Below are positions 18,248 through 62,994 of a stretch of DNA of 64,000 bases, piece after piece. The position numbers were made by a program, and so were the translations under genes. How positions within the stretch are numbered: position 1 is the first letter of the stretch; each line of letters starts with the position of its first letter. This DNA is from Mobula hypostoma (taxonomy: Eukaryota): the NCBI RefSeq assembly GCF_963921235.1, contig NC_086097.1, forward strand, positions 90,026,001-90,090,000, given 5' to 3'. Under the pieces are notes generated by a model. It made no database searches. It was not told the DNA's origin and was given only the letters and a program-made list of their open reading frames with translations.

Positions 18248-18740
18248 TGTCTCTTCTCTGTCTCTGTCTGGCTCTGTCTACCTCTGTCTCTCTCTCTGTT
18301 TGTCTCTGTCTCTGTCCGCCTCGGTCTCTGTCTCTGTCTGCCTCTGTCTACCTCTGTCTCTGCCTCTGTTTGTCTCTGTCTCTGTCTGTCTCGGTCTGCC
18401 TCAGTCTCTGTTTGTCTCTGTCTCTGTCTGCCTCTGTCTCTGTCTGTCTGTCTCTCTCTGACTCTTCCTATCTCTCTCTCTCTCTCTCTCTCTCCCTCTC
18501 CCTCTCTCTCTCTGTCTCTGCCTCTGCCTCTCTCTCTTTGTGTTTCCGTCTGTCTCTGTCTCTGACTCTCTGTTCCTGTCTCTGCCTCTCTGTTCCTGTC
18601 TCTGCCTCTCTTTGTATTTCTGTCTCTCTCTGTCTCTGACTTTCTGTTCCTGTCTCTGCCTCTCTTTGTGACTCTTTCTGTCTCTCTTTGCCTCTCTCTC
18701 AATACACTCTCTCTGTCCCTCTCTGCCTCTCTGTCTTCCA
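18248..18740. repeat. Imperfect (TCTCTG)n/(TC)n microsatellite
   Basis: About 490 bp pyrimidine tract; explains the CLSLS/ERDR low-complexity ORFs. Confidence 0.95.
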
Positions 18741-21189
18741 TTTTTACACTATAGTCTATGACTTCTGATCTTCACAAAATCTCTACACTTAGATTCAGAC
18801 CTCAAATCTTTTGAAAAGTAGAAGTCTGATCCACTGAGCCAAAAGAGACAGGCAGCTTTATATTCCAGATCAGCCATGCAAAGCAAGCTTCAAATGACAT
18901 TTACAGTAGCGTGAATAAAGACTTGATGTCTGCATTCAGCAAATGTATTTAGTCTCAAGTTTGTCCAAAGTCTATGTCACAAGCTTCGAATGCATGTTGC
19001 ATTGTGCATTGATCAGGTACCAGTGGGTTTACACACATGATGGCCTTGTGATTACGTACTGGACTGGACACAAGTAAAAGGGAGCAGGAAGAAGTCACCC
19101 GGCTCCTAAAGCCTGCCCAGTCATTCAATATGATCATGGCTGATCAACCCCAGGCCTGAACACCTCCTCCGTGTCACTGCCTCAGAATCTAAATCCCGTA
19201 TATTCTCACCAGCATGTGACGTGAAATTTGTTAACTTAGCAGCAGCAGTTCAATGCAATACATAATCTAGCAAGGAAAAAAAATAACAATAAATAAAATA
19301 AAAATATTAATAATAATAATAAATAAACAAGTATATCAATTACATATATTGAATAGACTTTTAAGAAGAGTAAAAACAGAACTACTGTATATTAGAAATC
19401 TTTCAAAAACTTATCAAACTCCTCAATGCACCATAATAACTCTAGCAAATAATTAAATGAGCATTGGAGTAATTAGTTCAATTACAAACAAGAGGAACGC
19501 TGCAGTTGCTGGAAATCCAAGCTGTACACACAAGTGAGTCCTGATAAAGATTTTCAGCCCAAAATGTCGACTGTGCTCTTTTCCATAGATGCTGCCTGGC
19601 CAGCTGAGTTCCTCCAGCATTTTGTGTGTGCTGCTCGGGGTGATTCGTTACACCTTTTCAGCCTTAAGGAAATCCATTTAGTCCAACTCTCTAACTTCTA
19701 TGTTATAAATAGTCTTCAATCAACATCAGGGGTTCCCGACCCTTTTTTTAATGCCATAGAACCTTACTGTTAACTGACGGATCTGTGAGTTCAGGATGGG
19801 AACATCTGGTCTATATGAACAAACCAATACCATAAGCCCTTCCCTTGTATACAATCCTTTTATGTAGCACCTCATCAAATTCTTTCCAAGACAGCACCAA
19901 CTTGCGGTACCCGTTGGTCGAGGCTCAGATTTAGTTGTTTTCTTTTAGGTTTGTGGGGTTTGTTTTAGAGAGGGGAGAGTTAGTTGTCAGGTTAGGATTG
20001 AAGGACAGGGATGTTGGTGGGGGGGGGGAGGGTGTGAATTAAAGGCCAGGCTGGAATTTAAGCCTCTTCTCTGCATTCGAAGGCTAGTGGAAAAACCATG
20101 GTGGAATACCGGACCAACAGACCAGCACAGATGGGAGATGGTATCATCACCATCACCGTTTCCCCCCCACCCCACAGAGTCAGTGAGTTGTTGGCAGCTT
20201 ACAGAGTCAGAGTTTCGTGTGAGCAGGAGGAATGAGGTCCAATGACCAAACCCCCCCCCCCCCAGGGGTTCACGAATCGGTGAGAATGGAGTCAAAACCT
20301 AGTTTGGAATACCATCGTCGTCCAGAGTTTGAGGCCTAGTGCTGGAGATTGGTGGGTCCCGAGGTTGATGCCAAGGATCAAGGCCTGAGGGGTGAAGTGG
20401 AAGTCTGGAAGTTGAAGCCCATTGGCTGGAGCTCAAGTCTGTGAATCTCACTGAGCCTACTGCAGAATTCCAAGGCCTGATGACTGTGAATTTGAGTTTG
20501 AGTCCGCTGAGGCTGGGGGCTGAAGACAGCCTGTCCTGGGTTCCGTGGAGGACCGTGTATGTACATGTTTGGGAGGGAGGAACGGGGCTTGTCTTGCTGT
20601 TGTTGTTCCTTTGCTTTTGGTGTCCTGTGTGGACGTACTATGTTAGCGTCAGATTGGGTGGTGACACTTGTGGGCTACCCCAGCACATTCTCAGGTGTGT
20701 TGGTTGTTAATGCAAAAGGTGCATTTCACTGTATGTTTCAAAGTACATGTGAAAAATAACTTTGAATCTTTGAATGTATTCTGGAAATTCATATTCACAA
20801 GATTTATAGGACTATTGAATCAACCTGTTTCATCTGCATAGAAATCTAGCAAATTAGCTAAACATGATTACTTTTCATAAAACAATAGGCTTTATTGTAG
20901 TAAGCTTTTCCAAATGTCTAGTTGTTTATTGTTTGATTATACATTCCTGCCTCCTGCCTCCAACATATGTTAAGCTAACTGGCCTATACTTTCCAGACTT
21001 TTGTGTCCCTTCCTTCATGAACAAAGGTACACATTTTCAAATTTCCAATCTGCAGAAATCCCACGAAGCTCAGTGAGTTTGAAAAACTTTAACCAATGGC
21101 TCTACTATTTTGACAGACAATTCCTTTAAAACCAGGGTTTGATGTCCTCTCAACTTGTCAGCCTTTAGTCCATTAGTACCTCCAATACC

Positions 21190-22648
21190 GATCCCTCAAA
21201 TTTTTGTTCACATAAGTGAGTATTACCACCAAGGATTTTGATCAATTTTGGCAGAGGATTTTGTTTGTGAACAACATGCTCCTTCTTTCACAGTACAGCC
21301 CAAAAAAACAGAGAACATTGTAAAGCATGAAAAACTAAAAACTAAAGATGGAAATGTCGAAGTTCCTCTGCCCAGTACTCAGTTGAACCACCTCTTGCAG
21401 CTATTACAGCCAGTAGACTTTTTGAATGAGCGTATAAACTTTGCATAACACGAACGGGCAAGATTTGCCCATTCCTCCTTGCAAAAATGCTCAAGCTGTG
21501 CCAAGTTAGTTGGGGAGCAGCAGTGGACAGCATTCTTACCAGAGATGTTCGATTGGGCTTAGGTCACGTCTCTGACTGGGTCACTCAAGGACATCAATTT
21601 TCTTCATTTGAAGCCACTGCCTGGTTGCTCTGGCAGTGTGCTTTGGGTCGCTGTTCTGCTGAAAGACCAACCCTCCCCAGTTTAAGCTTTCTGGCAGAGG
21701 ATAGAAGGTTTTTAACCAGGATCTCTCTGTATTTAGCAGCGTTCATCTTCCCATCAGTCCTGACCAGTTCCTGCTGCTGAAAAGCATCCACATAGCATTT
21801 AGGGACGGTGTTACCTGGCTGATGCATAATACTAGATTTATGCCACATGTACTGCTTAGTGTTGAGGCCAGAAAGTTCCCCTTTAGTCTCATCCGACCAC
21901 AAGACCTTCTTCCATATCTTTACGGTATCTTTTAACTGACGGTTTGCAAAGTATTTAAGGGCAAGGATATGCTTTTTTCAGCCTGGGCTTCTTCATAAAT
22001 ATCCTTTTTGTGCAAGGCCTTAGAGATTGTGGAGCCATGAACCTCATCTCCCATTGCTGCCATTGACTTCTGTAGCTCTCTCAGAGTAACTGCTGGTCTC
22101 ACAGTAGTCTCTATTACAAGTGCCATTCTTCTCAAGTGACTAAGTTTAGAGGGGTGGTCTGACCTAGGCATCATGGCCGTAGTTTCATATTTTTTCCACT
22201 TTTTCATGATGGACTGCACTGAGCTCCAAGGTATGTTCAGTGCCTTTGAGATGGTCTTGTACTTTGAGCGCTCTCTTGTCTTCATTTTGGTTTGGTCTGT
22301 TGAAAATCTACCATACTGTTGGACCTTACAGAGAGAGGGGGTATTTATTCAGGTGATCCTCCAATTTTCCTAATCAACAAATTGGGTGAATTGGTAAGGT
22401 ATATTGCACCTGAGGAAAATTAGCATAGTAATTAGAAAGGGGATGAATATTTTTTCAGTCTCACAATGTTGGATTTTAATTTTTAGTAAATTGTTGACAG
22501 GGTTTGGAATGTTTCATCTGATTTAACATCATGCAGAATGTTTTGTAGATTAGTGCAAAAAGCCCTACTTGGATATATTTTAAATTTAGAAAATGATACA
22601 GTAAAATCTGAAAATAGTTGAGGGGTTGAATGCTTTTTCAAGGCACAA
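21190..22648 (-). mobile_element. Inactive Tc1/mariner (Tc1-like) transposon
   Basis: HTH part YKTISKALNIPWSSVQSIMKKWKKY (21932-22285), WSDETK (21594-21902), decayed W*PSQ..DLSPIEHL at ~21540-21590; Tc1-like end (rc tgtgccttgaaaaagcattcaacccct). Confidence 0.9.
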
Positions 22649-25492: not shown

Positions 25493-25604
25493 TTTTTTTT
25501 TCCCTGCTCAATAATGCATTTTCATCAAATGAACTTTGAGAAGGAAGAGGCTGTTCAGTCCTCACACTTGGCCCACTATGTTGGATACTGATGTATTTGT
25601 AACC

Positions 25605-25990
25605 CAAACAAAATGCTTGAAGAACTCAGGCCATGAGGCCAGGCAGCATGTACAGAAAAGAGCGAATTGCCGATGTTTCGCCCGAGACCCCTCATCAGGA
25701 CTGGAAAGGAAGATGAGAAGTCAGAGCAAGAAGGTGGGGGGAGGGGAGGAAGAACTACGTAGTGGTAGGTGGTAGGTGACACTGGGAGAGGGGGAGGTGG
25801 CGTGAAGTAAAGAGCTGGGAAGTTGATTGGTGAAAGCGATAAAGGGCTGGAGAAGGAGGAATCTGACAGGAGAGGGTAGAAGACCATGGAAGAAAGGGAA
25901 GGAGGAGGTGCACCTGCAGGAGGTGATGGACAGGTAAGGAGATAAAGTGAGAGAGGGAAATCAGCATCAGCAGATTTTCTCGTGTGTTTG
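25605..25990 (-). mobile_element. Penelope-like pLTR/UTR fragment with inverted tip
   Basis: Reverse hammerhead cagtcCTGATGA...GAAACatc at ~25667-25703; a + strand pLTR end (cagcagattttctcgtg) at ~25960-25988. Confidence 0.75.
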
Positions 25991-26329
25991 TAATCTGTTT
26001 CTATGGAAGTCAAGAATATGGCACAGAACTTGTTGCTGTCAAAAGTTTATTAAGCATTACAAGAACAAAGTAAACAAGGTGAAAGAAAAAAGAGCAAAGA
26101 GAGCCTGGGGAAGGGAAGAGCAAGGAGGCCAAAAAATGTAGTTTGCACCAGACTACTTGATAGCACACATTCCATTTCTTACATTAACCAATGAGATAGC
26201 CTCCATTCAAGTAATATGATATCTGTCACTGAAATTAGGATGTTTCCAGAAAAATTACAACCACCAGAAAATGCACTGAACAATTACATGGCTATACAGA
26301 AGGTAATTATCTAAAAATACAAACAAACA

Positions 26330-27156: not shown

Positions 27157-28530
27157 TTATTGCTGATCTGATGGTATCTTCAACTCTGTTTTCCCATTTA
27201 CCCCAGTAACTTTTAAATAGAACATATCCTTCCTATAGTGAGGTGACCAGAACTGGACACAATACTCCAAGTGTGGCCTAACCAGAGTTTTATAGAGCTG
27301 CATCATTACATCACGACCCTTAAACTCTATCCCTCGACTTATGAAAGCTAACACCCCATAAGCTTTCTTAACTACCCTATCCACCTGTGAGGCAACTTTC
27401 AGGGATCTGCGGACATGTACCCCCAGATCCCTCTGCTTCTCTGCACTACCAAGTATCCTGCCATTTACTTTGTACTCTGCCTTGAAGTTTGTCCTTCCAA
27501 AGTGTACCACCTCACACTTCTCCGGGTTGAACTCCATCTGCCACTTCGCAGCCCACTTCTGCATCCTATAAATGTCTCTCTGCAATCTTTGACAATCCTC
27601 TACACTATCTACAACACCACCAACCTTTGTGTCGTCTGCAAACTTGCCAACCCACCCTTCTACCCCTACATCCAGGTCATTAATAAATATCACGAAAACC
27701 GGAGGTCCCAGAACAGATCCTTGTGGGACACCACTAGTCACAATCCTCCAATCTGAATGTACTCCCTCCATCACGACCCTCTGCCTTCTGCAGGCAAGCC
27801 AATTCTGAATCCACCTGGCTAAACTTCCCTGGATCCTATGCCTTCTGACTTTCTGAATAAGCCTACCATGTGGAACCTTGTCAAATGCCTTACTAAAATC
27901 CATATAGATCACATGCACTGCACTACCCTTATCTATATGCCTGGTCACCTCCTCAAAGAACTCTATCAGGCTTGTTAGACACGATCTGCCCTTCACAAAG
28001 CCATGCTGACTGTCTCTGATCAGACCACGATTCTCTAAATGCCCAGAGAGCCTATCTCTAAGAATCTTTTCCAACAGTTTTCCCACCACAGACATAAGGC
28101 TCACTGGTCTATAATTACCCGGACTATCCCTACTACCTTTTTTGAACAAGGGGACAACATTTGCCTCCCTCCAATCCTCCAGTACCATTCCCGTGGACAA
28201 CGAGGACATAAAGATCCTAGCCAGAGGCTCAGCAATCTCTTCCCTCGCCTCATGGAGCAGCCTGGGGAATATTCTGTCAGGCCCCGGGGACTTATCTGTC
28301 CTAATGTATTTTAATAACTCCAATACCTCCTCTCCCTTAATATCAACATGCTCCAGAACATCAACCTCATTCATATTGTCCTCACCATCATCAAGTTCCC
28401 TCTCATTGGTGAATACCGAAGAGAAGTATTCATTGAGGACCTCGCTCACTTCCACAGCCTCCAGGCACATCTTCCCACCTTTATCTCTAATTGGACCTAC
28501 CTTCACTCCTGTCATCCTTCTGTTCTTCAC
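27157..28530 (-). CDS. Open remnant of CR1 ORF2 reverse transcriptase domain (457 aa); transposon-encoded, last ~23 aa are read-through
   Basis: Complete non-LTR RT motifs; upstream ORF2 pieces (28560-29114, 29152-29926) are broken by frameshifts, stops and an insertion. Confidence 0.75.
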   Translation of the reverse strand: MKNRRMTGVKVGPIRDKGGKMCLEAVEVSEVLNEYFSSVFTNERELDDGEDNMNEVDVLEHVDIKGEEVLELLKYIRTDKSPGPDRIFPRLLHEAREEIAEPLARIFMSSLSTGMVLEDWREANVVPLFKKGSRDSPGNYRPVSLMSVVGKLLEKILRDRLSGHLENRGLIRDSQHGFVKGRSCLTSLIEFFEEVTRHIDKGSAVHVIYMDFSKAFDKVPHGRLIQKVRRHRIQGSLARWIQNWLACRRQRVVMEGVHSDWRIVTSGVPQGSVLGPPVFVIFINDLDVGVEGWVGKFADDTKVGGVVDSVEDCQRLQRDIYRMQKWAAKWQMEFNPEKCEVVHFGRTNFKAEYKVNGRILGSAEKQRDLGVHVRRSLKVASQVDRVVKKAYGVLAFISRGIEFKGRDVMMQLYKTLVRPHLEYCVQFWSPHYRKDMFYLKVTGVNGKTELKIPSDQQ

Positions 28531-29162
28531 ATAATTGAAGAATGCCTTGGGGTTTTCCTTTACCCTACTCGCCAGGCCTTCTCATGCCCCCTTCTTGCTC
28601 TTCTCAGCCCCTTCTTAAGCTCCTTTCTTGCTTCCCTATATTCCTCAATAGACCCATCTGATCCCTGCTTCTTAAACCTCATGTATGCTGCCTTCTTCCT
28701 CCTGACTAGATTTTCCACCTCACTTGTCACCCATGGTTCCTTCACCCTACCATTCTTTATCTTCCTCACCGGGACAAATTTATCCCTAACGTCCCGCAAG
28801 AGATCTCTAAACATCGACCACATGTCCATAGTACATTTCCCTGCAAAAACATCATCCCAATTCACACCCGCAAGTTCTAGCCTTATAGTCTCATAATTTG
28901 CCCTTCCCCAATCAAAAATTTTCCTGTCCTCTCTGATTCTATCCTTTTCCATGATAATGCTAAAGGCCGGGGAGCGGTGGTCACTGTCCCCAAGATGCTC
29001 ATCCACTGAGAGATCTGTGACCTGACCCGGTTCATTACCTAGTACTAGATCTAGTATAGCATTCCCCCAGTCAGCCTGTCCACATACTGTGACAGGAATC
29101 TGTCCTGGACACATTTAACAAACTCTGCCCCATCTAAACCCTTGGAACTAATCAGGTGTCAA

Positions 29163-29380
29163 TCAAGCAACACACATCAAAGTTGCTGGTGAACGCAGCA
29201 GGCCAGGCAGCATCTCTAGGAGGAGGTACAGTCGACGTTTGAGGCCGAGACCTTTCGTAAGGGTCTCGGCCTGAAACGTCAACTGTACCTCCTCCTAGAG
29301 ATGCTGCCTGGCCTGCTGCGTTCACCAGCAACTTTGATGTGTGTTGCTTGAATTTCCGGCATCTGCAGAATTCCTGGCAT
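29163..29380. mobile_element. Palindromic Penelope pLTR insertion in CR1 ORF2
   Basis: About 92-bp inverted arms; degenerate 12-bp TSD aggtgtcaatca/agatgccaatca. Confidence 0.85.
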
Positions 29381-29961
29381 AGATGCCAATCAGTATTAGG
29401 GAAGTTAAAGTCACCCATGATAACAACCCTGTTATTTATGCACCTTTCCAAAATCTGCCTCCCAATCTGCTCCTCTGTATCTCTACTGCTACCGGGGGCT
29501 TATAGAATATTCCCAATAGCGTGACTGCTCCCTTCCTGTTCCTGACTTCCACCCATACTGACTCAGAAGAGGATCCTGCTACATTACCCACCCTTTCTGT
29601 AGCTGTAATAGTATCCCTGACCAGTAATGCCACCTTCCTCCCCTTTCTCCCTCCTCTCTATCCATTTCAAAGCACTGAAATCCAGGAATATTGAGAATCC
29701 ATTCCTGCCCTGGTGCCAGCCAAGTCTCTGTAATGGCCGCTACATCATAATTCCATGTATGTATCCAAACTCTCAGTTCATCACCTTTGTTCCTGATGCT
29801 TCTTGCATTGAGGTACACACACTTCAGCCCTCCTACCTTACTGTCTTTACACCGTTTATTCTGCATCTCTTTCCTCAAAGCCTCTTTATGTGTTAGATCT
29901 GGCTTTACTCCATGCACTTCTTTCACTGCTCTATCGCTCCGGGTCCCATCCCCCTTGCGAA

Positions 29962-30903
29962 TTAGTTTAAACCCTCCCGAACCATGCTAGCAAACCTACC
30001 TGCAAGGATATTGCTCCCCCTCAAGTTCAGGTGCAACCCATCCAATCTGTACAGCTCCCACCTTCCCCAGAAGAGATCCCAATGATCCAAAAATCTAAAA
30101 CCCTGCTCCCTGCACCAACTCCTCAGCCACGCATTCAACTGCCATCTCCTCCAATTCTTACCATCACTGTCCCGTAGCACTGGCAGCAATCCTGAGAACA
30201 CCACCCTTGAGGTCCTGTTCTTCAGCCTTCCGCCTAGTTCCCGAAACTCACACTTCAGGACCTCGTCCCTCTTCCTGCCTATGTCGTTGGTACCAACATG
30301 TATCACGACTTCTGGTTGCTTTCCCTCTCGTACCAGGATGTCGTGCACCCGGTCAGAGACATTCCGGACCCTGGCACCCGGGAGGCAACAAATCATGTGG
30401 GTGTCCTTCTCATGTCCGCAAAATCTCCTGTCTGCTCCCCTGACTATAGAGTCTCCAATGACAACAGCTCTCCTCTTCTCCATCCCACCCTTCTGAACCA
30501 CCGGGTCAGACTCAGTGCCGGAGGCCCTGCCACCGTGGCTCACACCTGCTCGGTCGTCCCCGCCAACAGTATCCAGGACGGTAAACTTATTATTCAGGGG
30601 AATGGCTACAGGGGTGCTCTGCACTACCTGTCTGCTCACCTTCGCTTTCCCCCCTCCGACTGTCACCCAACGACCTGCTTCCGACAGCCTAGGTGTGACT
30701 ACCTCCCTGTAGCTCTCATCTATGACTGCCTCATTCTCACTTATGAGTTGAAGGTCATCCAGCTGCTGCTCCAGATTCCTTACATGGTCTTCCAGATCGC
30801 CCAGCCGTATGCACTTCTGGCAGATGTGACTCTGCAGGAGAGGTGCGTTCTCCCAAGACTGCTACGTCTCACATGAGAGGCACATCACCGTCTCAGGAGG
30901 CAT
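29962..30903 (-). pseudogene. CR1 ORF1: CxxC/CxxC zinc finger + coiled coil + SGNH/GDSL esterase
   Basis: ATG at 30903 in frame with ORF 29962-30666; MPPETVMCLSCET*...HICQKC...VRNLEQQLDDL; GDSIVRG, HVGTND, DGLH motifs; single in-frame TAG at 30862-30864. Confidence 0.85.
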
Positions 30904-35972: not shown

Positions 35973-37163
35973 GAGTGGTCTCCAACCACCGGGCCACGAG
36001 GAAACAATATGGTTTGGCGATATGAAACAATATGAGTAAGCTGCACCTTTCCCCATTCCCTGTCACTCACTGTTGAATTTTAATGCACTTGAGGTACCCA
36101 GTGACCCAAGACATGCAAAGGAATGGGTTCGTGACCCATTTGTGAATGTTCCCGGTGAATCATCCATGTCAGCGTGGGAAAAAGATCAACTCCTCGAGCT
36201 TGCAAATGACGGCGGGCTGAAAAGTACGTTTGACATAACATCTCTGCCGGCATTCTGGATCAAAGTCAAGGCTAAATATCCTGAGATAGGCACGAAAGCA
36301 CTGAAAACGTTGCTTCCATTTTCAACATATTTCTGCGAAGCGGAGCTTTCTGCAATGAATGCAACGAAAACTAAATTGCGGAATAGACTGGACATTAGGA
36401 ACCCACTTTGATTATCGCTGTCTCCAATCACCGTGATAGGACCGTGTTGTTGCAGGAAAACAGGCCCAGGGCTCCCACTGATTCAGCGATATTGGTGTGT
36501 TGCAATGATTTTATGTGTTCATACGAGGAAAATATGCGCTGTGTGTTTAATATCCAAACGTTACTTAAAATGGTATGATGCTATTGACTTATAAGTGACT
36601 TATAATTCAGTGGTCCCCAACCTCCGGGCCACGAAGAATACAGTGGTGGCTGGAACGCACCCAGCACATCTTTAAGAAAAAAGTCGAAATAAATTAATTA
36701 GGTGCCACCCAGCACGTAAATGTCAGCCCAGATCAGAGGCGATTGCCGATTGCGTCACCTCTGATCTGGGCCGACATTTATGTGCCGGGTGGCACCTAAT
36801 CAATTAGCTTGTTTATTTCAGCTTTTTTCTTAAAGATGTGCTGGGTGCGTTCTGGCTACCGCTGTACCGCTGCATTCTTCGCGGCCCGGAGGTTTGGGAC
36901 GACTGTTATAATTGACTTATCACTACATTCATGAGAGGAAAATGTGCGCTGTGTGTTTAATATTAAATTCGTTAAATAAACACCTTTAGAAATGAAATTG
37001 AGTATATTAGCCACTTACAAGTGACTTATAGTTGACTTATCACCTATATTCCGGTCGTGTTTAACACCCGCCAACCCCCCCTCCCCCCGCCGGGTCAGCT
37101 GGTCTGCAGGAATATTGTCAATATTAAACAGGTCCGCGGTGCAAAAGAGGTTGGGGACCCCTG
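35973..37163 (+). mobile_element. hAT Charlie/Buster-type deletion derivative with transposase C-terminus
   Basis: ORF 36073-36411 WVRDPF...FWIKVKAKYPEIGTKALKTLLPFSTYFCEA..SAMNATKTKLRNRLD (hAT dimerization region); end ggttggggacccctg. Confidence 0.85.
36608..36905. mobile_element. Foldback hAT MITE, 298 bp
   Basis: cagtggtccccaacctccgggcc ... ggcccggaggtttgggacgactg; nearly the whole element is an inverted repeat; perfect 8-bp TSD TTATAATT at 36600-36607 and 36906-36913. Confidence 0.9.
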
Positions 37164-38260: not shown

Positions 38261-39147
38261 CCTTAAGCCCTCCCCCTGAAATCACCAAATGTTCAGTTCT
38301 GCCCAACCTCCAGATTTCTGTGTTTGTCTGATCCAGGTTTTCAGGATGTGCTTTCCCTCTTGATTCTGCATCTCTGCACTAAACTCTATTGTACAGTTGG
38401 ACCTCTTTAAAAATTGTGAAACTGGCTAAAAATATTATCAAGATAGCTCTTTGTAGAGGGTTGGGCATTAATCAGCCTGCTTGTACTTCCCCCCTCCTCC
38501 TCCAATTTTTATGAACAGGAGATAATCTAGCCAATGCTTCATGTGGTCTGGTAAATGTCAGTGCTGTAATAATAATGGCCCAACTTGACCAGCTATGTGG
38601 TTAATTCAAGCCTTCAGTACTCCAGCAGCAATATCTTAAACTTCAAATTATACATTAGGTGCTAAGTAAAATACCCAATGCACAGAATCTCATAGTTCGG
38701 ACAGAATAAAGCCCATTGCATCAGCGGGCTAAAGTTACACTGAGAAATAATTGTTATTTATAGAATGACTTTATATTAGAAACAAGTGAATTTAATGCCT
38801 GGATTCCCAACTTGGGGGCCACTGACCTCTCAGTTAAAGACAGGGGTCCATGGCATAAAAATGATTGGAAAGCCCTGATTTAAGGCTTTGAACAATCATG
38901 CAGTATATTTCCTTATGAACAATCATAATTCTCATAACCTCTTCTCACTCTAGGTTATTCAGTCCAAGCGTAAGATCCAGTGTTAAATTTGCACAGAAAG
39001 AATTGAATCTGAACAGGATAAGTCTACAGGACCTTGAATTCATGTTTTAACCATGTATTATACAAGTAATAGTACATATAAACATATGCAATAGAATGGG
39101 AATAGGCAACTCAGCCTCTCAAAGCTCTTCATCAGTCAATACGACTT

Positions 39148-39880
39148 TACCGGTGCTCCCGGTATGGTCTCCTGTATGTTGGTGAGACCCAACATAGATT
39201 GGAAGACCACTTCACTGAGAATCTTAGCTCCGTTCACCAGAAAAAAACAGGACCTCCCAGTGGCCATCCATTTTAACTCTACTTCCCATTCCCATTCCAA
39301 CATGTCAGTCCGTGGCCTCCTCTACCATCATGATGATGCCACACTCGGGTTGGAGGAGCAACACCTGATATTCCATCTGTGTAGTCTCCAACCAGATGAC
39401 ATGAACATCAAATTCTCAAAGTTCCAGTAATTGCCCCCCCCACCTTCCTCTCATTCACCATTCCTCATTCCTGTTTACCTCTCTCATTTTATCTCTTCAC
39501 CTGCCCATCACCTACCTCTGATGCTCTTTCCCCTTTCTCCTTTTTCCATGGTCTTCTCCTATCAGATTCCCCCTTCTCCCGCCCTTTGTCTCTTTCACCA
39601 GTCAACTTCCCAGCTCTTTACTTCACCCCCCCCTCTGAGTTTCATCTCTCACCTACCATCTTGTACTGCTTCCTCCCTTCCCCGTTCCTTCTCACTCTGA
39701 CTTCTCCCCTTCCTTTCCAGTTCTGATATAGGGTCTCAGCCTGAAACATCAACTGTTTCCTCTTTTCCACTGTTGCTGCCTGGCCTGCTGAATTTCTCCA
39801 GCATCTTAGAAACATAGAAACATAGAAATCTTGTGTGTGTTGCTTTGGATTTCCAGCATCTATAGATTTTCTTGTCTTTG
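39148..39880 (+). mobile_element. Penelope-like element: GIY-YIG endonuclease remnant + UTR + pLTR
   Basis: RCSRYGLLYVGETQHRLEDHF (frameshift) KQDLPVAIHFNS...LEEQHLIFHL..LQPDDMNI; decayed hammerhead at 39718-39755. Confidence 0.85.
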
Positions 39881-40827
39881 TGTTACTGTGATCTTACTGA
39901 TTTTCTGCCTGCTTATCATGAATCTATTTACTTCTACCATGAAAATATCCAAAGGCCCTGCTTTTAAGGACAGGATTTCTAAAGACTCAAGCGCCTGCAA
40001 GAGAGAGAAAAAGAATGCTTCCTCTGTTAAATGGGTGTCCATGAATTTACAGATTGAGAACCTTAGTTCTAAATTCACCTGCATGAGAAAGTACCCTTTC
40101 ACATCTACCAAGTCAAGATCTTTTATGGGAATCCGGAGTCATCTCCTCACTCCCCGAAGCCAGTGAACCAATTACAAGACGTAACAGGAGAACGAAACAC
40201 TATCTGGATGGATGAAGCTTGAGAAAAACACTCAGCTGTCTTCTCGCCTCAGGCAATTTGGTTGTCATAAACAGAGATGCCAAGTCATCAATGTCCATCT
40301 GTCACGATCAGTGACTCCCTCCACAATTTGTGCACGGTGACTTTATTCTGCAACGTGCACATAGTGCAATCCATAATTCAGCAAGGCTGCACTAACAGCA
40401 GTTCTCAAATCTGCAGCATTTAAAAGGTCTAGGGCAGCAGTTGGAAAATCTCCATTTGCAAGCTTCCTTTCAAGTTATACAGCTTCCTGAATTGGATATC
40501 ACTCTCTGTCTATTATTGGAGGTCTTTATCTATGTGCAGAGAGTATGGGAGTATCTTCAATACAGGTAAGAACTGGTTTACTAGTACCTTCTCAAGGAAA
40601 GTTACAAATAGGCAATAAGTACTAACTTTGATGGCAATGCCTATATCCCTTGAACGAATGCACAAGAAACCTTCAAAGAAAGCATGCAAAGGTATCCTGG
40701 CATTAGACTCAGCATAGTCACATGGATCAAAGTTAAGATTCTTTGGCAAAACAACTTCACTAACCCTACTGGAAATCCTCCATTTCACTTAACTCAGCTT
40801 CCTTCTTTACCCCCTATTTACGTCCTG

Positions 40828-45256: not shown

Positions 45257-46236
45257 TCAGAAGCAGAAGACGACAGATGGAAGTGACAAAGGGTTGAAGA
45301 TGACGGTATTCGATAGGAGAGGAAAGTGGAGCACGGAATAGAGGCAAGGAGGCTTGGGGGGGCAACCATGGGGGGAGTGTGTGGGTGACGGGCATTGAGG
45401 AGGGTGATCAAGGAGAAAGAGGGTGGGTGATGGGGGCTGGTGGAACTGAAGGAGATAGAAAACAAAGAAGGGGAAAAGGGGGACGGAGCAGTTTGCGTAT
45501 GTGTCCACCTGCACCCTTTGCTCTCATATTTACCTGCACACGGTTGATGAATCTGTCCATGACAGTAAACAGCAATGGCCACTTTGGTGAGGAAACTGAA
45601 AGGTTCAGATTCCCGTGAATTCAGTGGAGTTTTACATCTCTTGCCTCTGTCAATAACCTGATATATATTGCATCAGGCTTTGGGGACATACACAGTCCTA
45701 ATACCCACCTGATTATATTAAGCCAGCTGTTTGGATATGTGCCCCAGGGCCCTAATGTCTCCTAAATGCTACCAGATTAGGAGCATGATGTCTACACTTT
45801 AACTGAAACATTGAGCACAAGAGACTGCCACTGCACATAACAGGCCATAGTGTATATCCTGAATCTTATTCTTTGACTGGAAGCTGGCCTGATTTCCTGC
45901 TTGGTTCTTTCTCAGCAATGAATGATGTAGAAGAAGCTGCAGCCCTGGATCAGGTAGATTAGCTACTGCTGGGGTAGACAGGTGGGCTAGTGTGATATGC
46001 AATATTTAGGATTAAACACAGTAGAACAGAGAGAAATCTGGGATGATATGAGAACTTGGTGAAAGGTATACACTACCTAGCAATTACAGGGAGGTTTGGT
46101 GAATATGCAGTGTGTTCCAGTTGTGGAAGGGGTCAGTTATTTAGCAGTCCTGGGGAAGGACTCCTGCTCCTTCTTGTCCAAAAGCCGTGCTGGGAGGCCT
46201 CCTAATGACTCTTGCATTGGTTTCCCAAGACGTAGA

Positions 46237-48914: not shown

Positions 48915-49031
48915 TAGATTAACTGTTCAGAAGGCAGTAACTTGTGCTTGTGTCAGCTATGATTTTATGTTGCAATATAAAGTCATGGCTGACACAAGCA
49001 CAAGTTGTTGTCTTCTGAATTAGTTAATCTA
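48915..49031 (+). repeat. 117-nt near-perfect inverted repeat (candidate RNA hairpin)
   Basis: Arms pair right up to the central TTG|CAA with seven G-U pairs, one bulged U and no other mismatch on the + strand. Confidence 0.85.
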
Positions 49032-51860
49032 AGAGCTAACTGTACCTGAATCTTTCACAGATACATTTGAGGTTTGGAGAAACCAAGAGTGCAGTGAAAC
49101 AATACAACTATTACTTACAATCCATCAGGTGCAAAACCCATTAAAGACTTTGTAGGGAGTCAGCAGGTAAACTCGCGCTTGAGGAAGGATGGACTTTGGT
49201 ATTGATGTCCGTTGAAAGCCGGTTCTTTGTCTCCTTAAAGTTTTATTCACAACCCGTTTCAAAAGCTCATTTCGGTCTCCTTGTCCCAAAGGCTTTTTGT
49301 CAGTGGCTGTTCGTGAATTTACGTACTTTCTCAGATCACAAATGCAAAACATAGCAATGGCAAAAGGTGCACTGTGGTTTTTTATTTACGTGGCACCTTC
49401 CATTATCACAGCTGTACAAATTCAATGCATTGTTGCCTCCTGTGTATTGTATTACTGTACAATCACCATTGCTGAAGACAGATTTTTTTTTTTTAAATTT
49501 TATTTTTATTTGGAAGCACTGGAATAATAATTAGACTATCCATTTTAGTGAAGTGTTTTCCTCTGCTCTTCTTTACAGTGATATTGAGAAATTTTTTTAG
49601 TCATCCTCAAACAGGAGCAGGAGACATGAGCTGTTTAAAAGAAACCAGTTAATTCAGCGAGGAAAATGTTGCCCTTGAGTCACATAGCCACATCCCGCCT
49701 CTATCTTAACCACGATAAACCCTCTGCAAATGTCAACCACAGCTTTTCTCGATAGGCAGAGTGGAGAAGGGCAAGTAATCAGACAGGTTGTTAGCTTGGC
49801 GCTTGGGACACGTCTATCTCGATCAAAGAATTTTTCTGTCTAATTCACTCAGACCATTTGTGTTAGGATAGCCTCTCAGGGTTTTACCCATAGTGCACAG
49901 AACAGAAGCCTAATGAACTCTCAGGTTGCTTTCTGACTTCTGTTCGGGCAGTAGCAGGGTGATGCGTTTGGCTGGGATTTGATGGGTAGGAGAGGAGTGA
50001 AAGAAATAAAAACTATTCCTTTGATTAAGCAGTTGCTTATCCAGTATCACCTATCATACTTGTTTGTGTCTTGATACTCATTTTATGATAGGTTGCACCT
50101 GAAAAGGACGTAACAATGCTCAGCTTTGATTAAGGGGCAATATGAAAGCAAGTTGTGAGGTCAGTCTTACTGCAGAGCTCAGGGTGGTGTCTAGGTGATC
50201 AGGGGAACAGAGAGCTGAAGTGTAAGTAGATCTTAGCTGAGGACTGGATTGGCTCATCCACAATGCCTCCCGTGGTTCAAATGTCCATCAGCCAACAAAA
50301 GGGGAGAGCTGAGGGGCTGGGCCTGTTTCCCCTAGAGTGGGAAAGTTCAGGAAAGGACATTATAGGGGTACATAACATTAAGAGGGATAAAGAAAAGAGA
50401 GACTGCAGGAGTCTTTTCCCTTTAAATAAAACTAGTAGAAGTAGACTTAGGGTAAGAAGAAAGTGAGCTTGAGGGATTAGAAGGGGAACTTTTTTTTTCC
50501 ACACAGAGAATGATAAGCAGCAGAAATGTTCTGCTATGAGAGTGGAGGAAGCAGAGTCACAAACACCATTTATGGGGTGCCTAGATGAGCACTGAAATTT
50601 CCTGGGCATTGAGGACTAAAGGCCAAGACCTGAAAGACTGGATTAATATGGAAGAGTACCCAATGGTTTTCAAAGATTTGGTGGACTAAATAGCTTATTT
50701 CCATGCTCTGTGACTCTGAAGATTATCTGTATGTTAGAGAGTACCCAACTTACAAAAATCTATAACCCATTGAGACCCGGTGGGCACAGGGGAGTAGGGT
50801 GTGTTGGGTTAGGGAAAGCAGTGATACACTTCTGAAGCAATACCAAACTACAGCTTGTTTACTCAGTGTCAAGCATAGGCACTTTTGAATATCCTTGTGA
50901 TCTCCTTCGTAATGCTAGCCCAAGCCCTGTTGAAACTCGACTCAACACTCCTGCAAAGCTATCCGTGACCTCTGTTAAGGTTTGATTTCATTCTCTGGAC
51001 CTGGCTGTCTGCTGCTGAGAAAGTCCTTAATTTTGCACTGATTAAAAATTTACATTCTATGACTTCATTTCTTTGCTCCATTGCTGCTTCGAGCTGCTTG
51101 TCACGTCTGCACTCACCCCAGCCAGGCAGAACTCTTGTCATCACTGTCTGGCCCGTACCATGTACTTTTTAGCTTCCTTCACCAGAAAGGTGGATGACCC
51201 TGGCCACACCACCTTCCCAACAAGTTATTCAGCTCTCCGTTCTCCTGCCATACACCCTGACCACTTAGACATCACTCTGGGATCTACGACTGAGCTTCTC
51301 ACATCTTCCCTCCACATTGTCATAACCACGGACTCTACTGCAGCGTCTAGGAGCCTCCACAGACTCGGCAATAGCGCTTGTGAATATGCATGGTCCAGCT
51401 AACTACTGTCTCATTACGGTGGCATTTAAACTAACTCCCTTCTTTTTGCTGTAGTCTTGTCAAGACTTGAGCAAAGCACATCAACGTTACGCTCCATGCT
51501 TACCTTCATTCTTGTCCGAGAAAGAGGACTGCCGTTTTCAACTGATGCTGGAAATGTGCAGTATTCATTCAGAGTTTTAGTTAACGCCCTTGTTAGCCTA
51601 GCATTTGATTTCCTTTCCCTCCAAGATTCTGCAAAGTTCTCATTAAACTGTGAATTGCTTTCTCTCCGCACTTGGGCCACATCTAAGTGTTCTGACACAT
51701 ATTACCCCTTAGTCAAAGCTGAGCATTGTAATGTGCTTTTCAGGTGCAGTCTATCATTACACAAACACGAGGAAATCTGCAGATGCTGGAATTTCAAGCA
51801 ACACACATAAAAGTTGCTGGTGAATGCAGCAGGCCAGGCAGCATCTCTAGGAAGAGGTAC

Positions 51861-51896
51861 AGTCGACGTTTCGGGCTAAGACCCTTCGTCAGGACT
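51861..51896 (-). ncRNA. Minimal type I hammerhead ribozyme motif (Penelope type)
   Basis: Reverse strand reads AGUC-CUGACGA-AGGGUCUUAGCCC-GAAAC-GUC-GACU: helix I AGUC/GACU, intact core, ACGU palindrome in place of helix III, GUC cleavage triplet. Confidence 0.75.
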
Positions 51897-51939
51897 AACT
51901 GAAAGAAGAGCTAGTAAGAGAGCTAACTGAAAGAAGATT

Positions 51940-51975
51940 AGTCCTGACGAAGGGTCTCGGCCTGAAACGTCGACT
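51940..51975 (+). ncRNA. Minimal type I hammerhead ribozyme motif (Penelope type)
   Basis: AGUC-CUGACGA-AGG(GUCUCGG)CCU-GAAAC-GUC-GACU; all core nucleotides present. Confidence 0.8.
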
Positions 51976-54283
51976 GTACCTCTTCCTAGAGATGCTCCCT
52001 GGCCTGCTGCATTCACCAGCAACTTTTATGTGTGTTGCAGTCTATCAATAAATGAATATCGAGACACGAAAAAATATATTAGGTGATATAACCGAGACCT
52101 TAGTCAAAGGGCAGCTTTTACTTCTTAAAGCACAGAGAGAGAGAGGTGGAGAGGTACCACAGCCAATGGTAAGGCAGAGTATGTATGGAAGGTTGCCAGC
52201 ATTTGACTACAAAAAATAAGTGACAAGTTAGAGTTTGATATTTTCAGAACTTCCTGAAGATGCTTCACAGGGGAGATTATTCTACCTCAAGAATTTCCCC
52301 AGTGGCCCCTGGATATTCCCATTGGGAGGATTATTCCAAGGGAAACTCCCATTTATCTCCAATGTTAGTAGGAGGCCACTCACTGCAAAGTCCTGACCAT
52401 TATGTCTGATGGCTGATTCTGTCAGAAGATTTATAAGGGAAAATGTACATTCTCAACAAATATGATATGGGCCAAATCATTTCCCAATTAAAGTAGGGGC
52501 ATTCTGCCCAAAACAGGACTATTTCCAGCCTCAGCATAGAGGTAAGAATCGGACCCATGGAAATTCTGGTGTTGTCTTCCCTACAGAGTTACAGAGAAAA
52601 GATCATAAGTATTTAAGGTGGAGAGAGATAGGAAGGTCTTTTACGTGTTGAAAGACTGAATAGTTGAGGGCTATGGGGAACTGGGAAATAAGAGGAGGTG
52701 AGACCTGGGCAGATCATTTATGATCATCATTGATATTGGGGCAGGCTTGCGGGGACAGATGGCCAATCCTGGTCCTATATTCTTGTACTGATGAATAGTG
52801 CAAAGATCCCAGAGCACTCTAGGAGCTTAAGGGTACCCAGATATTATGGAAGGATCTGAACAAGATGAAGAATGTTTTATAATCAAGCAGTTACAGAGCA
52901 GAGGTGACTGTGGGTCAGCAAACATTGGCGTGGTGGGGAGATGGCTGCAGGCACTCCAAAAGCTCCTCGTGGATTCAGTGACTGTTCAGCTTTCCATGGT
53001 TGAGTTCATCTTGGACCTCTGTTCAACGTCAGCTAGCCTGACCTGTTGCTCCAGCACTGGAGCAAACAATGGAGCACTGACTGATGGAAAGTGAGTCCAT
53101 TTGCACGTTGCATTCAGTGGCTTTGTATAGTGCCCGGACAGGTGCTGAACAGGTAGTTATACCTTACAACTGAATGGGATCAGTGACTTTGTGGAAAAGT
53201 GTAAGTACAGTTTCATGGCTAGTTGTAAAAATGTTTCTTATTATTTACTTTTAATGTTATTTTATCTTATTTATTTTCTTATTTATCTAAATATACTTGA
53301 AATGCTTTAATGCTCATTTTACTTTATTTTAATACTGTTGTTAATGTTGTGAGGTGTCTTGTATTCAATTATTTTTAATATCTCAGCAACTTTTATTTAA
53401 GTTGCCTTCTTGATATTCATATCTACCTGAAATGTTTTGAATGGTTATTTTTCTTTTAATGTTTTCCATCTTTCCACTTGTACTTTAAACTGTTTTTAAA
53501 ATAAATTTACTCACTAATATTTATAATGCCTTAATTGTTCTTATATGATCCTGTTTGAAGTATTTTAACATAACCACCAGAGACGCTTCAAGTTAGTTCA
53601 GAAGCTTTGGACACCAGTGAGATGTCAAGGTTTTCTGCAACTGGGGTCTTCAGGAATGTTGGCTTTAGTATGCTGACATTATGGCACCCACTCTGCCTTG
53701 TCCTCTGCCCTCTGTGTCTAGTGGGTCAATACTGCAGGTTACGAGTCTGGGCAGCCAGCTGGTTCAGCATGACCTGGTCTGATGGGTCAAATCGGCAAGT
53801 CCCCAGGTCTGGCGTGATGGGATGAAAGGACAGCCACAAAGCATTACTGTAACTGTTTACATGGAAGATAAACTGCAGTCTGATCTGTTTAGGTTTGTTT
53901 TGTTTTGGAAGTTGGATGAAATCCTATGCATACCAGTCAAAAATAAAGCCCAGATGTGATGAAAATAACACTGCAAAGTCATTACAGTACAAGAATTAAA
54001 TATGACAAACACAAATACAGGACATGGAACAATATTTATGAAATTAAATCTGAATTGCTAGTTTTGTGCATTTTGACTAAAGCTGTTGGCATATTTGTAA
54101 ATACATTTCTGCCACCTGTACCCATATGCATGCCATAGCAGAATATCACAGACTATCAGTGAAAATGTAATTGGCAACTGGTTGTATTGAATGTAATTTG
54201 TTGGTGTTGCAATAAAAAATTAGTAAAAAAAAAAGAATATCTCAGACTGAGATTTAAAGAAAATTTTAAAGACATTTACGTAT

Positions 54284-57405: not shown

Positions 57406-57675
57406 GGCAGAATTGCGAGGCAGGGTGAATTCATGGTGGGAGACATCAAACGTCATAGGACGGGGGCAAGAAGCAATGGGAGGAAGAACATTTGACAAGT
57501 AATATGTCCCAGCATGAGCAAATGTAGATGGACTAGACACGTTAATAATGATGGCAACACACACAAAATGCTGAAGGAAATCAGCAGGCCAGGCAGCACC
57601 TAGGAAAAGATTACAGTCAATGTTTCGGGCCCAGACCCTTTGGCAGGACTCAAGGGCTGCTCTGATTTCCAGCAT

Positions 57676-58305
57676 TAGATTAGATTAGATTATGAGGACA
57701 CGCAGTCCTCTTTTATTGTCATTTAGTAATGCATGCATTAAGAAATGATACAATGTTCCTCCAGTGTGATATCACAGAAACACAAGACAGACCAAGCCTG
57801 AAAAACTGACAAAAACCACATAAGTATAACACATAGTTACAACAGTGCAAACAATACTGTAATTTGATAGAAGAACAGACCATGGGCACGGTAAAAGGAG
57901 ACAGTAGAAGGAAGAAAACTCTCCTTACCATGAGCTTCCAGTGTCGCAAACTTGCCGATGCAGCACCCTGGAAACACTCGACCACAGTCCGACTCTCAAT
58001 CCGTCCGAAAACTTCGAGCCTCCGACACCGAGCACCGAGCACCATCTCTGCCAAGCGCTTCGACCACAGACCCGGCCGCCAGCAACAGGCAAAGCCGAGG
58101 ATTTGGGGCCTTCCCTCTGGAGATTCTCGATCGCACAGTAGCAGCGGCAGCAAAGCAGGCATTTCAGAAGTTTCTCCAGATGTTCCTCCGTGCTTCTCAT
58201 GTTTACCTCCATCAAATCAGGATTGTGCACGGCCCCTATTTAACAAATACGATATCATTTCACCAGAGAGGCCGCGCGATCTGCGTCACGCCGCCACCTT
58301 CTCCT
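57676..58305 (-). mobile_element. Non-coding, CpG-rich retroposon with (AATCT)n tail, inserted in a Penelope pLTR
   Basis: agattagattagatt tail and tttattgtc at the left; the host pLTR ttccagcat|ctgcag is split at 57675 and ~58306. Confidence 0.65.
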
Positions 58306-59234
58306 GCATCTGCAGGTTTTCTCTTGTTTGACGTTAATAATGATACTAGCAAGATCAATGGCAAAGGTGGGGTGGAGCAAATTCTGAGATATCTGCTTAA
58401 AGGAAGATCTATCAGGTGGGCATTCGACTTCACAACTGTGGTCCAGGTAAATCAACATCCCTTGCCTCAACTTTCACCTGATTCCTACTTGGTGTGAGTA
58501 GACCATGATGTCTGCAGGGATTGAATGGTTTAAAAAAGGTCTTCATAAGCAATGTCAAAGTATAAATTGATGAAGAATTATGGTCAGAAGGTTTCAAAGC
58601 ACCTACTGCCTGATGAGTTTGCACTCACTCACACTAATCCCATTTTATTCTCCCCACATCCTCAACAACTCCACCTTGATGTCCCCACTCCCTTATGCAC
58701 TAGGAACAACATATAGTGACCAATTAATATTCTAACATGTTCTTGGGGGTGTAGAAAAAAAGCAGAGCAGATGGAGGAAGGCCATGCATCTCACAAAAAG
58801 AGAATGAAAACTCCACACAGAGAGCACAGGACGTCAGGATTGAACCCAGGAGTTTTTAGAGCTGCACGACTGTGTGCCCATTTACAATGTTACTACACAT
58901 CTTACCAGTCTCCGTGTGTCTCCAGTCAAATTTGTGTGTACACTAAGGATGTTAATGAGTTCATTCGCTCTACAAAACACATAATAATAAAGCAGCATTG
59001 TGTGAGAGAATTTCCAGCCGTGTCTGTAATGCAAAATGGCATCAGCTTCAGTGAGACTCACACAGCTGGCAGGTATCCAGAATCTGAAGCACTAGCCTAC
59101 AGTTGCTGCTTGACCCGCTGAATTCCTCCAGCAGTTTGTTTTTCACTCTAGGTTCCAGTGTTTGTCATCTTTTGTGTCTACAAGTCAGATCAGATACTTT
59201 TTGGACAATAACTTGGAAGTTAAGGCAGGCTCTT

Positions 59235-60721: not shown

Positions 60722-62269
<1,548 letters not shown>

Positions 62270-62994
62270 CACAGTATGAAGCAGTGTACTTTTTCAATGA
62301 AGGGCAAGAGAAACCACAACACCCTCCATATTTTCCTACAAAATCCTCAGATAGAAGAAAAAAAGAAACCAATATTGTGACCTAATCTAATCGCTTCAGA
62401 ATTCTGGGCAGCGTTGGCATACAGTGGCCTTTTTAGCCTGCCCCACCATCCAGTATGGTCATAGCTAATCTGCACCAGGCGTCCACACCATTTTGCTGGC
62501 AAGATAACACCTCCTGCCCAACTTTAGTTCTTGGCCAACTCATTGTGCATTTAAGTGCCAGCTGCTCTGGAACAGGATTGGAGCCACTTCTGGGGTCAGT
62601 CAGGTCAGGATGGCAGGTTGACATTTACAAAGTCAAGGCTGACATACCAGCAGGTCAGCACTGTGAACATGCTACGCTCTCGGAAATACCAGCCTTGAAA
62701 TTACATTGTGTGGTGTTGATTTTCCAGCGATGTATCGCTGAAAACTGATCTAGCAAGATGTAATAGGCAGTCAGGACCACGGCTAGGTGGCTTCAGTTCA
62801 TTCCAGAATTTGAACCAAACTTCCCAATGAGATTCACCGTTTCACACCTGGAATAATAACTGTGGTAGTCATGCATGGTATCTAGTTGTTCTCAATGCAA
62901 CATTACAAGATAAACTAAAGCAAGCTGTCAAAGGAGAGACAGTTTGTCAATCCAGAAACAATTAGATTTTAATAATGCAGTTTTTAACACCTGG

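Follow-up and report, generated by a model that had tools for sequence, protein, structure and literature searches.

The window analysed here, a stretch of 64,000 nucleotides from the ray Mobula hypostoma, contains a short palindromic insert (51745-52050) with a hammerhead motif on each strand. The question is whether such a foldback is a replicating element in its own right, a working part of a host transcript, or the trace of a single insertion. The original prediction described it as a mobile, ORF-less, MITE-like ribozyme unit that might also provide a cleavage site in a host pre-mRNA. Our analysis indicates, with a probability of roughly 0.88, that the insert is a single inert insertion of an EN+ Penelope-like element (PLE), in which two short 5'-truncated pLTR ends stand head to head.

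Structure of the foldback

The two inverted arms (51798-51898 and 51938-52038) are 101 nt long, lie 39 nt apart and are complementary at 97 of 101 positions (96%), as had been predicted. The flanking duplication of about 15 bp was also confirmed. Its copies on the plus strand, 51745-51759 and 52036-52050, agree at 14 of 15 positions; the duplication measures 15 nt, or 12 nt when the right copy's first 3 nt are assigned to the element. None of 400 random position pairs equalled its score of 12, the best random score being 8. The host sequence has a diverged paralog on the minus strand (50001-50144), in which the flanks are joined across the site and 113 of 144 positions are identical to the joined flanks; this paralog contains the 15-mer only once, and hence the duplication is a true TSD.

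The insert is asymmetric. The left arm, which reads on the minus strand, carries 38 nt (51760-51797) without a mirror on the right arm, and alignment identifies them as the Penelope 'tail'. The usual 3' end of the family is at about 51762: 420 (X1) and 398 (X5) loose ends fall there and have long heterogeneous flanks. The 395 loose ends at 51921 (X1) run on into one family consensus. Inward from the tail lies the part of the pLTR end that the right arm mirrors (51798-51898). It includes a minimal type I hammerhead motif (51861-51896), with the cut predicted 3' of the C at 51865. The next 23 nt (51899-51921), upstream of the hammerhead, are native to the element and contain a branch-point-like motif, a pyrimidine tract and a YAG on the minus strand; the 5' truncation of this arm is at 51921. 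Just 16 nt of the spacer (51899-51937) are filler. This plus-strand segment, 51922-51937, comprises one G and a re-copy of 51895-51909, a templated insertion that corresponds to the repeated spacer sequence noted originally (the 15-mer recurs at 51923-51937). The right arm proper (51938-52035, plus strand) is a pLTR end without tail; its start, 2 nt ahead of helix I, immediately follows the first YAG of the family, and the arm contains the second minimal type I motif at 51940-51975, with a predicted cut after 51971. Three of the four differences between the arms are CpG transitions within the hammerhead (P=0.13 for such clustering). The identity of the arms, the TSD, the one-sided tail, the unique junction and the decay are established properties of this insert.

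The family in the window

Eleven family loci were aligned in the 64 kb. A longer decayed copy on the plus strand (39139-39882) contains in one piece a frameshifted GIY-YIG C-terminal remnant, a pyrimidine-rich segment, the hammerhead region and the tail; a second one (13464-14106, plus strand) has these parts in the same order. The GIY-YIG remnants are 70-76% identical to the ray proteins P0001 and P0002, in which the GIY-YIG domain is detected by Pfam with E values of 4.6e-4 and 1.2e-3 that do not reach the curated cut-off. Pfam gave no RT hit in these two proteins; an RT motif is recognizable by eye, as is a Cys-rich motif in the linker before GIY-YIG. Because 39139-39882 joins the hammerhead-plus-tail end to an ORF remnant, the arms are tied to a Penelope-like ORF, which bears out their assignment to Penelope-like pLTR ends. 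The focal insert combines the features of EN+ PLEs: kinship to an RT with C-terminal GIY-YIG, inverted 5'-truncated pLTR pieces, a one-sided tail of 30-40 bp (here 38 nt) and a TSD.

Five of the 11 loci are two-armed, with five different junctions, and each has the tail on exactly one arm. The second foldback (29163-29375) belongs to the same subfamily; it has no spacer, another junction and a tail on the right arm only, and its weak 12-nt TSD (10/12) is marginal, being matched by 11 of 400 random pairs. The third two-armed insertion (57554-58330) consists of a tail-less antisense arm that stops at helix I and a tail-only sense arm that a later insertion has interrupted, and is flanked by a perfect 14-nt TSD (57539-57552 and 58331-58344). 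At the fourth (19484-19638) a tail-only antisense arm is combined with a tail-less sense arm from helix I; the TSD search there and at 16661-16780 gave no significant match in the comparison with random pairs. The fifth (25600-25991) is decayed, with a long tail-less antisense arm, a tail-only sense piece and an unreliable TSD. A TSD above the random maximum is found at just two of the five loci. All five, two of which are decayed, have the end of the tail-less arm at, or a few bases from, the same pre-tail site. In the two young foldbacks the arms within each share three variants (columns 80, 113 and 129) that differ between the foldbacks; this is expected if both arms were made at insertion from one source.

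Origin of the insertion

Earlier publications already describe inverted pLTRs with tail and TSD as well as minimal hammerheads paired on opposite strands. Known PLE insertions contain an inverted 5'-truncated copy and a tail of 30-40 bp at one end (PMC8557442), or inverted pLTRs, tail and a TSD of 8-10 bp (PMC3846280), and dual minimal hammerheads on opposite strands lie 100-700 bp apart (PMC4209133). The focal insert shares with the EN+ PLE insertions of Arkhipova et al. 2013 (PMC3846280), Craig et al. 2021 (PMC8557442) and Schostak et al. 2008 (PMC2377424) the head-to-head inverted pLTR pieces, the tail on one arm (38 nt), the TSD, the 5' truncation and, in longer copies, the GIY-YIG remnant. 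It differs from them in its arms, which at 162 and about 98 nt are too short to retain an ORF, so the insert consists almost entirely of palindrome. Its TSD of 12-15 nt also slightly exceeds the 8-10 bp of the rotifer examples.

Within the insertion-scar explanation we lean towards a two-primer route, which is suggested by the anatomy together with in vitro work on a different PLE clade. The PLE protein would nick both target strands 12-15 nt apart, and each 3'-OH would serve as the primer for copying RNA of the same source element into cDNA. One cDNA would start at the end of the tail and the other at a start site just inside it. Both would stop early, after 162 and about 98 nt, and would then be end-joined, the filler being a short slipped re-copy. 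The in vitro work concerns PAc, a Poseidon element of Anolis carolinensis (Frangieh et al. 2024, PMC11167929). There cutting and extension took place on both target strands, the tail was delimited by two RT start sites, and insertion proceeded in vitro without need for hammerhead cleavage. Two starts on two strands would give exactly the focal anatomy. However, PAc comes from another species and probably another clade, since the Cys-rich linker before GIY-YIG in P0001 is a Neptune/Nematis feature (PMC8557442), and inverted products were not reconstituted in the PAc study.

The most serious competitor, which we nevertheless consider doubtful, is self-priming: the 3' end of a single target-primed cDNA would snap back, copy itself into the mirror arm and join the second target end. 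This process has already been proposed for palindromic junctions (PMC3846280), and it would agree with the variants shared by the arms within one foldback and with the near-perfect mini-hairpin in the centre of 29163-29375. However, the tail-less arm has the same pre-tail end at 5/5 loci, whatever the target, and a second RT start fits this better than a random stop. Furthermore, the focal junction is a 39-nt loop with direct-repeat filler, in which homology for a snap-back is not clear. The single locus matters little, being one of very many decaying Penelope ends. As a population, such insertions offer natural data on the route by which PLEs give rise to inverted insertions with one tail, which the literature consulted still describes as undefined.

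The boundary before helix I

Tail-less arms and 5' ends gather at a site before helix I that looks like both a 3' splice site and an initiator. The branch-point-like motif, pyrimidine tract and YAG are present in 6/6 copies that reach upstream, and in three of the four copies inspected a GTAAT donor-like site lies 264-294 nt further upstream, at the ORF stop. In D. virilis an intron ends at the 5' side of helix I (PMC4209133). We tentatively suggest that the micro-foldbacks may record PLE integration, in which a dimeric enzyme primes both target strands, at the two RT start sites that bound the tail, and the tail-less cDNA tends to end at a defined RNA boundary just before helix I and not at the hammerhead cut site. 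If this is true, an intron or a transcription start decides which hammerhead form is made, and the high copy number would allow two-primer and snap-back synthesis to be distinguished by counting.

Two candidate signs were rejected. P0003, the one candidate with a pLTR-derived peptide (1/1), gives no support for use of the splice acceptor, as the peptide starts two residues upstream of it. An extra G before helix I, as might derive from a cap, is present in two window copies; genome-wide the letters G, CG and GA can be read as ordinary family sequence.

Junctions across the genome

If the foldback replicated as a unit, as originally proposed, its copies should have the same junction. Contigs from two DNA-labelled runs were placed on the element (108,778 and 69,966 pieces). 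Summed contig depth rose up to 1e7 on the arms, compared with 9-13 on the right flank. At least 696 different joints were present genome-wide (15 listed and 681 further, the counts being incomplete), and the deepest among those listed had a depth of 519 versus 1e6-1e7 for the arms. In the window, the junctions differ in five of five cases. All-different junctions had been named beforehand as the outcome that speaks against a replicating unit, so the MITE-like reading is unsupported.

It is accordingly very improbable that the foldback is an ORF-less unit, MITE-like or retrozyme-like, which is moved in trans by PLE protein. The insert is indeed TSD-flanked and without ORF, it has cis ends on both sides, and pLTR sequences are able to mobilise unrelated DNA in trans (PMC3846280). 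Moreover, some joints have a single-contig depth of 250-520, 20-40 times that of the flank, meaning that some junction types recur or were amplified; two contigs have nearly the focal junction, with 2 extra letters. The spacer also exceeds single copy (about 1,500 at 51934 in X1, not 12), which repeat spill-over may explain. However, the arms are asymmetric, the filler at the focal junction is a one-off templated product, and both RT start regions would be buried in the 101-bp hairpin. Non-LTR retrozymes (bioRxiv 10.64898/2026.07.22.740005) are likewise ORF-less, PLE-derived and hammerhead-bearing, but they consist of at least two head-to-tail units of the same sense. The focal insert does not contain such head-to-tail repeats, the defining retrozyme trait; it is head-to-head, with one motif per strand. 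With MITEs it shares the short length, the inverted repeat and the TSD, but the copies of its family have neither fixed symmetric termini nor a common interior.

In a second organism the flanks are different at 17 of 773 positions, and contigs end inside the element at both sides; they reach 22-26 letters into it, fewer than the 31 letters of the bridging rule. The insertion is probably older than the split from this organism.

Hammerhead motifs and RNA folding

Exact matches to the hammerhead core pattern occur at 51944-51971 (plus strand) and 51865-51892 (minus strand), with 0.00 expected by chance (100 shuffles); 7809-7836 matches with one mismatch. Both arms contain CUGANGA, GAAA and an NUH triplet, a helix I of 4-5 bp, an extra nucleotide after position 9 and a palindromic 15.2-16.2. 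The core boxes, the extra nucleotide between 9 and 10.1, the palindrome and the length of helix I are shared with the published minimal hammerheads (PMC4209133). The minus-strand motif (51861-51896) is composed of a 4-bp helix I, CUGACGA, an extra A, helix II with G-C at 10.1-11.1, GAAA and the palindromic ACGU. The motifs on both arms thus match the predicted minimal type I hammerheads of Penelope-like pLTR ends, with ACGU in place of helix III. The claim that both are intact holds for the core nucleotides, which are complete; in the plus copy a G·U replaces G-C at 10.1-11.1, the pair with which helix II begins (51963 T), and this also sets it apart from the published examples. Further differences are the focal helix II of 4 bp with a tetraloop, compared with 7-8 bp, and the C at N7, which in the model favours an inactive hairpin. 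The published minimal hammerheads showed no activity as monomers and low activity as dimers (PMC4209133), and the anole PLE yielded no RNA ends at its cut site (PMC11167929). In dimers, the ribozyme fold of the focal motifs is calculated at -11.1 (plus) and -16.3 (minus) kcal/mol versus cofold minima of -30.3 and -29.2, tertiary contacts being outside the model.

The anticipated match in a covariance search did not appear: Rfam gave no hammerhead hit at the gathering score in the 64-kb window or at E<=10 in 51600-52200. We infer that this is expected for a motif without helix III. The same search returned sub-threshold matches to miRNA hairpins, which are caused by the foldback. A degenerate hammerhead pattern had no matches in viral contigs or in metagenome contigs.

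The RNA of 51745-52050 is predicted to fold with -211.3 kcal/mol (z -23.7), and none of 100 shuffles was as stable. On either strand, the penalty for imposing helices I and II is 57 kcal/mol when the full transcript is folded and 40-50 kcal/mol for a ribozyme that has just been transcribed, in energy models that leave out hammerhead tertiary contacts and protein assistance. Since the ribozymes face outwards, the antisense arm is always transcribed first. In a read-through RNA the emerging motif would be caught in the 101-bp duplex, and cleavage would not be expected. These values agree with the predicted long hairpin that masks the ribozyme, and self-cleavage within read-through RNA, the other fate foreseen, is strongly disfavoured by the models. 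In the insertion-scar explanation the hammerheads are pLTR passengers that the hairpin itself would switch off. Ribozymes that face outwards in foldbacks of this kind would silence themselves, so that the number of 'intact' hammerheads counted in these genomes is higher than the number of active ones.

Host context

A search of 266 non-repeat frames of at least 55 aa against Pfam, which misses short exons, gave hits in four, all to transposon domains. The proposed cleavage or processing site in a host pre-mRNA found no host exon among these frames to which it could belong. Two runs guessed to be RNA covered the repeat, with scant coverage of the flanks (13 and 14 of 30 bins), and are uninformative on expression. 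Clustered molecule ends were absent from the contigs, a type of data in which they would not be visible. The A>G places in the two runs (5 and 8) were not above those in the DNA runs (15 and 16), a comparison that pools all copies and is uninformative as well.

Co-option of the locus in a host transcript, by self-cleavage or as an ADAR or Dicer hairpin, is the least probable of the explanations: the 101-bp hairpin would be a plausible dsRNA substrate if transcribed, the insertion is probably common to the second organism and a copy of the same subfamily lies within one predicted alternative isoform of a ray gene (P0003), but the differences between the arms lie in the ribozyme and weaken helix II, host domains number 0 among the 266 frames, cis cleavage would be blocked by folding, and the related ribozymes cited above showed little or no activity (PMC4209133) or no cut-site RNA ends (PMC11167929). 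As a population, foldback hairpins of this kind could be a large passive source of dsRNA.

Structure of the foldback insert

The arms of the focal insert (51745-52050), at 51798-51898 and 51938-52038, are 96% complementary on self-comparison. The 15-nt flanking duplication is 14/15 identical and scored 12, compared to a maximum of 8 in 400 random position pairs. The hammerhead core pattern has one exact match per strand, with a chance expectation of 0.00. Complementarity, random-pair test and pattern search bear out the arms, duplication and hammerhead cores of the original prediction at its positions; an Rfam search of the insert gave no hammerhead match. A host-sequence paralog at 50001-50144 matches the flanks in joined form at 113/144 positions and contains a single copy of the 15-mer; hence the duplication is a real target site duplication (TSD). 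The insert measures 276 nt inside the TSD, or 279 nt if the TSD is counted as 12 nt, and its fold reaches -211.3 kcal/mol (z -23.7 against shuffled sequences). The insertion target is an old low-copy repeat (51698-52130), whose second, empty copy is the paralog, 1.6 kb off and in opposite orientation.

The insert is asymmetric. The left arm spans 51760-51921 (162 nt), and the right arm is about 98 nt long. The right arm has no mirror of the outermost 38 nt on the left (51760-51797); these 38 nt are a tail of the 30-40 bp class, which excerpts of PMC8557442 and PMC3846280 describe at one end of Penelope-like element (PLE) insertions. The 39-nt spacer consists of 23 nt of native element sequence, an origin indicated by 395 loose contig ends at 51921 that run on into one consensus, and 16 nt of filler. 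This filler, in which a G is followed by a second copy of 51895-51909, suggests slippage at the joint.

The element family

The left arm has many relatives within the window; we aligned 13 arms from 11 loci, leaving out weaker fragments (6790-6816, 59099-59133 and 45278-45352) and two endonuclease-only remnants. In the longer copies (39139-39882 and 13464-14106) a decayed coding remnant is followed by a pyrimidine-rich stretch and then by a focal-type hammerhead and 3' end. Database relatives of the remnant are two ray proteins, P0001 and P0002 (76% and 70% identity; 2 matches among 8 candidates), with a GIY-YIG match slightly below the Pfam cut-off; inspection by eye also showed an RT motif and a Cys-rich linker. 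Because the longer copies join the same end to a remnant with such relatives, we infer from sequence that the arms are terminal repeats (pLTRs) of an endonuclease-positive PLE, possibly Neptune-like. The family is very abundant: in two DNA-labelled runs, 1 kb at the locus drew matches from 108,778 and 69,966 contig pieces, and summed contig depth, which is not copy number, rose to 1e7 on the arms vs 9-13 on the right flank.

Junctions and proposed route of insertion

Two arms are present at five of the 11 loci (focal, 29163-29375, 19484-19638, 57554-58330 and 25600-25991). These have five different junctions, each with the tail confined to one arm. A TSD is clear in two and marginal in one; the TSD search demonstrated none in the other two. 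In two young foldbacks, three variants are common to both arms of each and absent from the other foldback, as expected if both arms arise at insertion. Contigs genome-wide contain at least 15 listed joints (the deepest among these at 519) and 681 further ones. With all five window junctions different and at least 696 joints in contigs, the evidence goes against the proposed replicating, ORF-less MITE-like unit and favours ordinary inverted insertion scars, the junction outcome that the original prediction named as its refutation. Some joints at 20-40 times single-copy depth, a depth of about 1,500 at 51934 in one DNA run (X1) and two contigs with a nearly focal junction count against this reading; recurrent or modestly amplified junctions do therefore occur.

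The anole PLE enzyme, according to excerpts of PMC11167929, cuts and extends both strands, and RT starts at two sites bounding the tail. If one start site were used per target strand, and both cDNAs stopped early and were then end-joined, the product would be a TSD-flanked, head-to-head, one-tailed insert. All five two-armed loci show this head-to-head, one-tailed anatomy, and we give this route a probability of roughly 0.6 for them. The main rival, snap-back self-priming, is put forward in PMC3846280 and appears less likely here.

Inverted pLTRs with tail and TSD are already published. Excerpts of PMC4209133 describe "dual min-HHRs", paired on opposite strands about 100-700 bp apart. Retrozymes are defined as tandem units (bioRxiv 10.64898/2026.07.22.740005), an arrangement that the focal insert lacks. 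A literature search, covering few subscription papers and no supplementary figures, found nothing on the ray family or such micro-foldbacks.

Ribozyme folding and decay

Both hammerhead motifs face outward from the insert centre, so the antisense arm would be transcribed first in either direction. In the full transcript, the penalty for imposing helices I and II is 57 kcal/mol; at the point where the ribozyme is newly complete it is 40-50 kcal/mol, and the two helices have pairing probabilities <1e-13. A single transcript of the insert lacks the two same-sense copies that dimer cleavage requires, and the dimer fold of isolated motifs lies 13-19 kcal/mol above the cofold minimum in an energy model that excludes tertiary contacts and proteins. 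Published minimal hammerheads were inactive as monomers and of low activity as dimers (PMC4209133, in part), and cleavage by the anole ribozyme required its protein, while the ribozyme was dispensable for insertion (PMC11167929, in part). Of the two RNA fates originally proposed, these models make masking by the hairpin the likely one in any transcript and disfavour self-cleavage, at a helix cost of 40-57 kcal/mol. The earlier interpretation is partly supported: for the Penelope-like pLTR ends and for masking, and not for the replicating unit. Host domains numbered 0 in 266 frames of the window.

The arms differ at 4/101 sites, three of them CpG transitions within the hammerhead (P=0.13). One creates a G·U at the 10.1-11.1 pair of the plus-strand copy; excerpts describe G10.1-C11.1 as highly conserved (PMC4209133) or conserved (PMC2837043). 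Contigs from a second organism, with flanks differing at 17/773, end inside the element from both sides after 22-26 letters, below the 31-letter bridging threshold. Neither the arm differences nor the organism comparison gave a sign of ribozyme preservation.

A candidate splice acceptor or start site at helix I

In three of five two-armed loci the tail-less arm begins no more than 2 nt from the base that opens helix I, and 51940-51941 is the entry point for 9 of the 15 listed joints. Each DNA run also has about 300 loose ends at 51940, long and heterogeneous, which stem partly from other subfamilies diverging upstream. By eye, a pyrimidine tract and YAG precede helix I in all six copies reaching upstream, with a branch-point-like motif in most. 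Pyrimidines make up about 80% of the region, and this acceptor-like appearance may therefore be compositional. The site also matches the initiator consensus.

The motif GTAAT occurs at the ORF stop in three of four inspected copies, 264-294 nt earlier in two complete ones. From donor-like GTAAT to acceptor-like YAG, 39427-39720 and 13709-13972 span 294 and 264 nt; joining the sites would, by eye, preserve frame and alter helix I. The interval is possibly a PLE intron. Excerpts place the D. virilis Penelope intron with its 3' end at helix I (PMC4209133) and 46 bp past an internal start (PMC2377424).

The acceptor-like site is unused by the sole predicted protein found with a pLTR peptide, P0003 (ray STARD3 N-terminal-like isoform X3). 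Its peptide, near the C-terminus, comes from the focal pLTR subfamily, is 29/32 identical to the right-arm frame and may reflect exonisation or an annotation artefact.

Other elements in the window

The two-armed insertion at 57554-58344 has a perfect 14-nt TSD. A later insertion, about 620 nt long and opening with a short (TAGAT)n run, interrupts its tail, and the order of events is readable. The foldback at 29163-29375 sits inside a minus-strand CR1-like LINE remnant (27160-30861) in which RT (Pfam RVT_1) and an ORF1 resembling an esterase (Lipase_GDSL_2) are recognisable. Two palindromic elements that do not belong to the Penelope family lie at 36591-36920 and 48915-49031 (78% and 86% self-complementary); the former adjoins a transposase-like frame (36040-36408) and could derive from a DNA transposon. 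A Tc1/mariner transposase remnant occupies 21597-22348 on the minus strand (Pfam HTH_SB, HTH_Tnp_Tc3_2). Long degenerate microsatellites at 18167-18771 (CT-rich) and 61266-62279 (GT-rich) produce spurious open frames.
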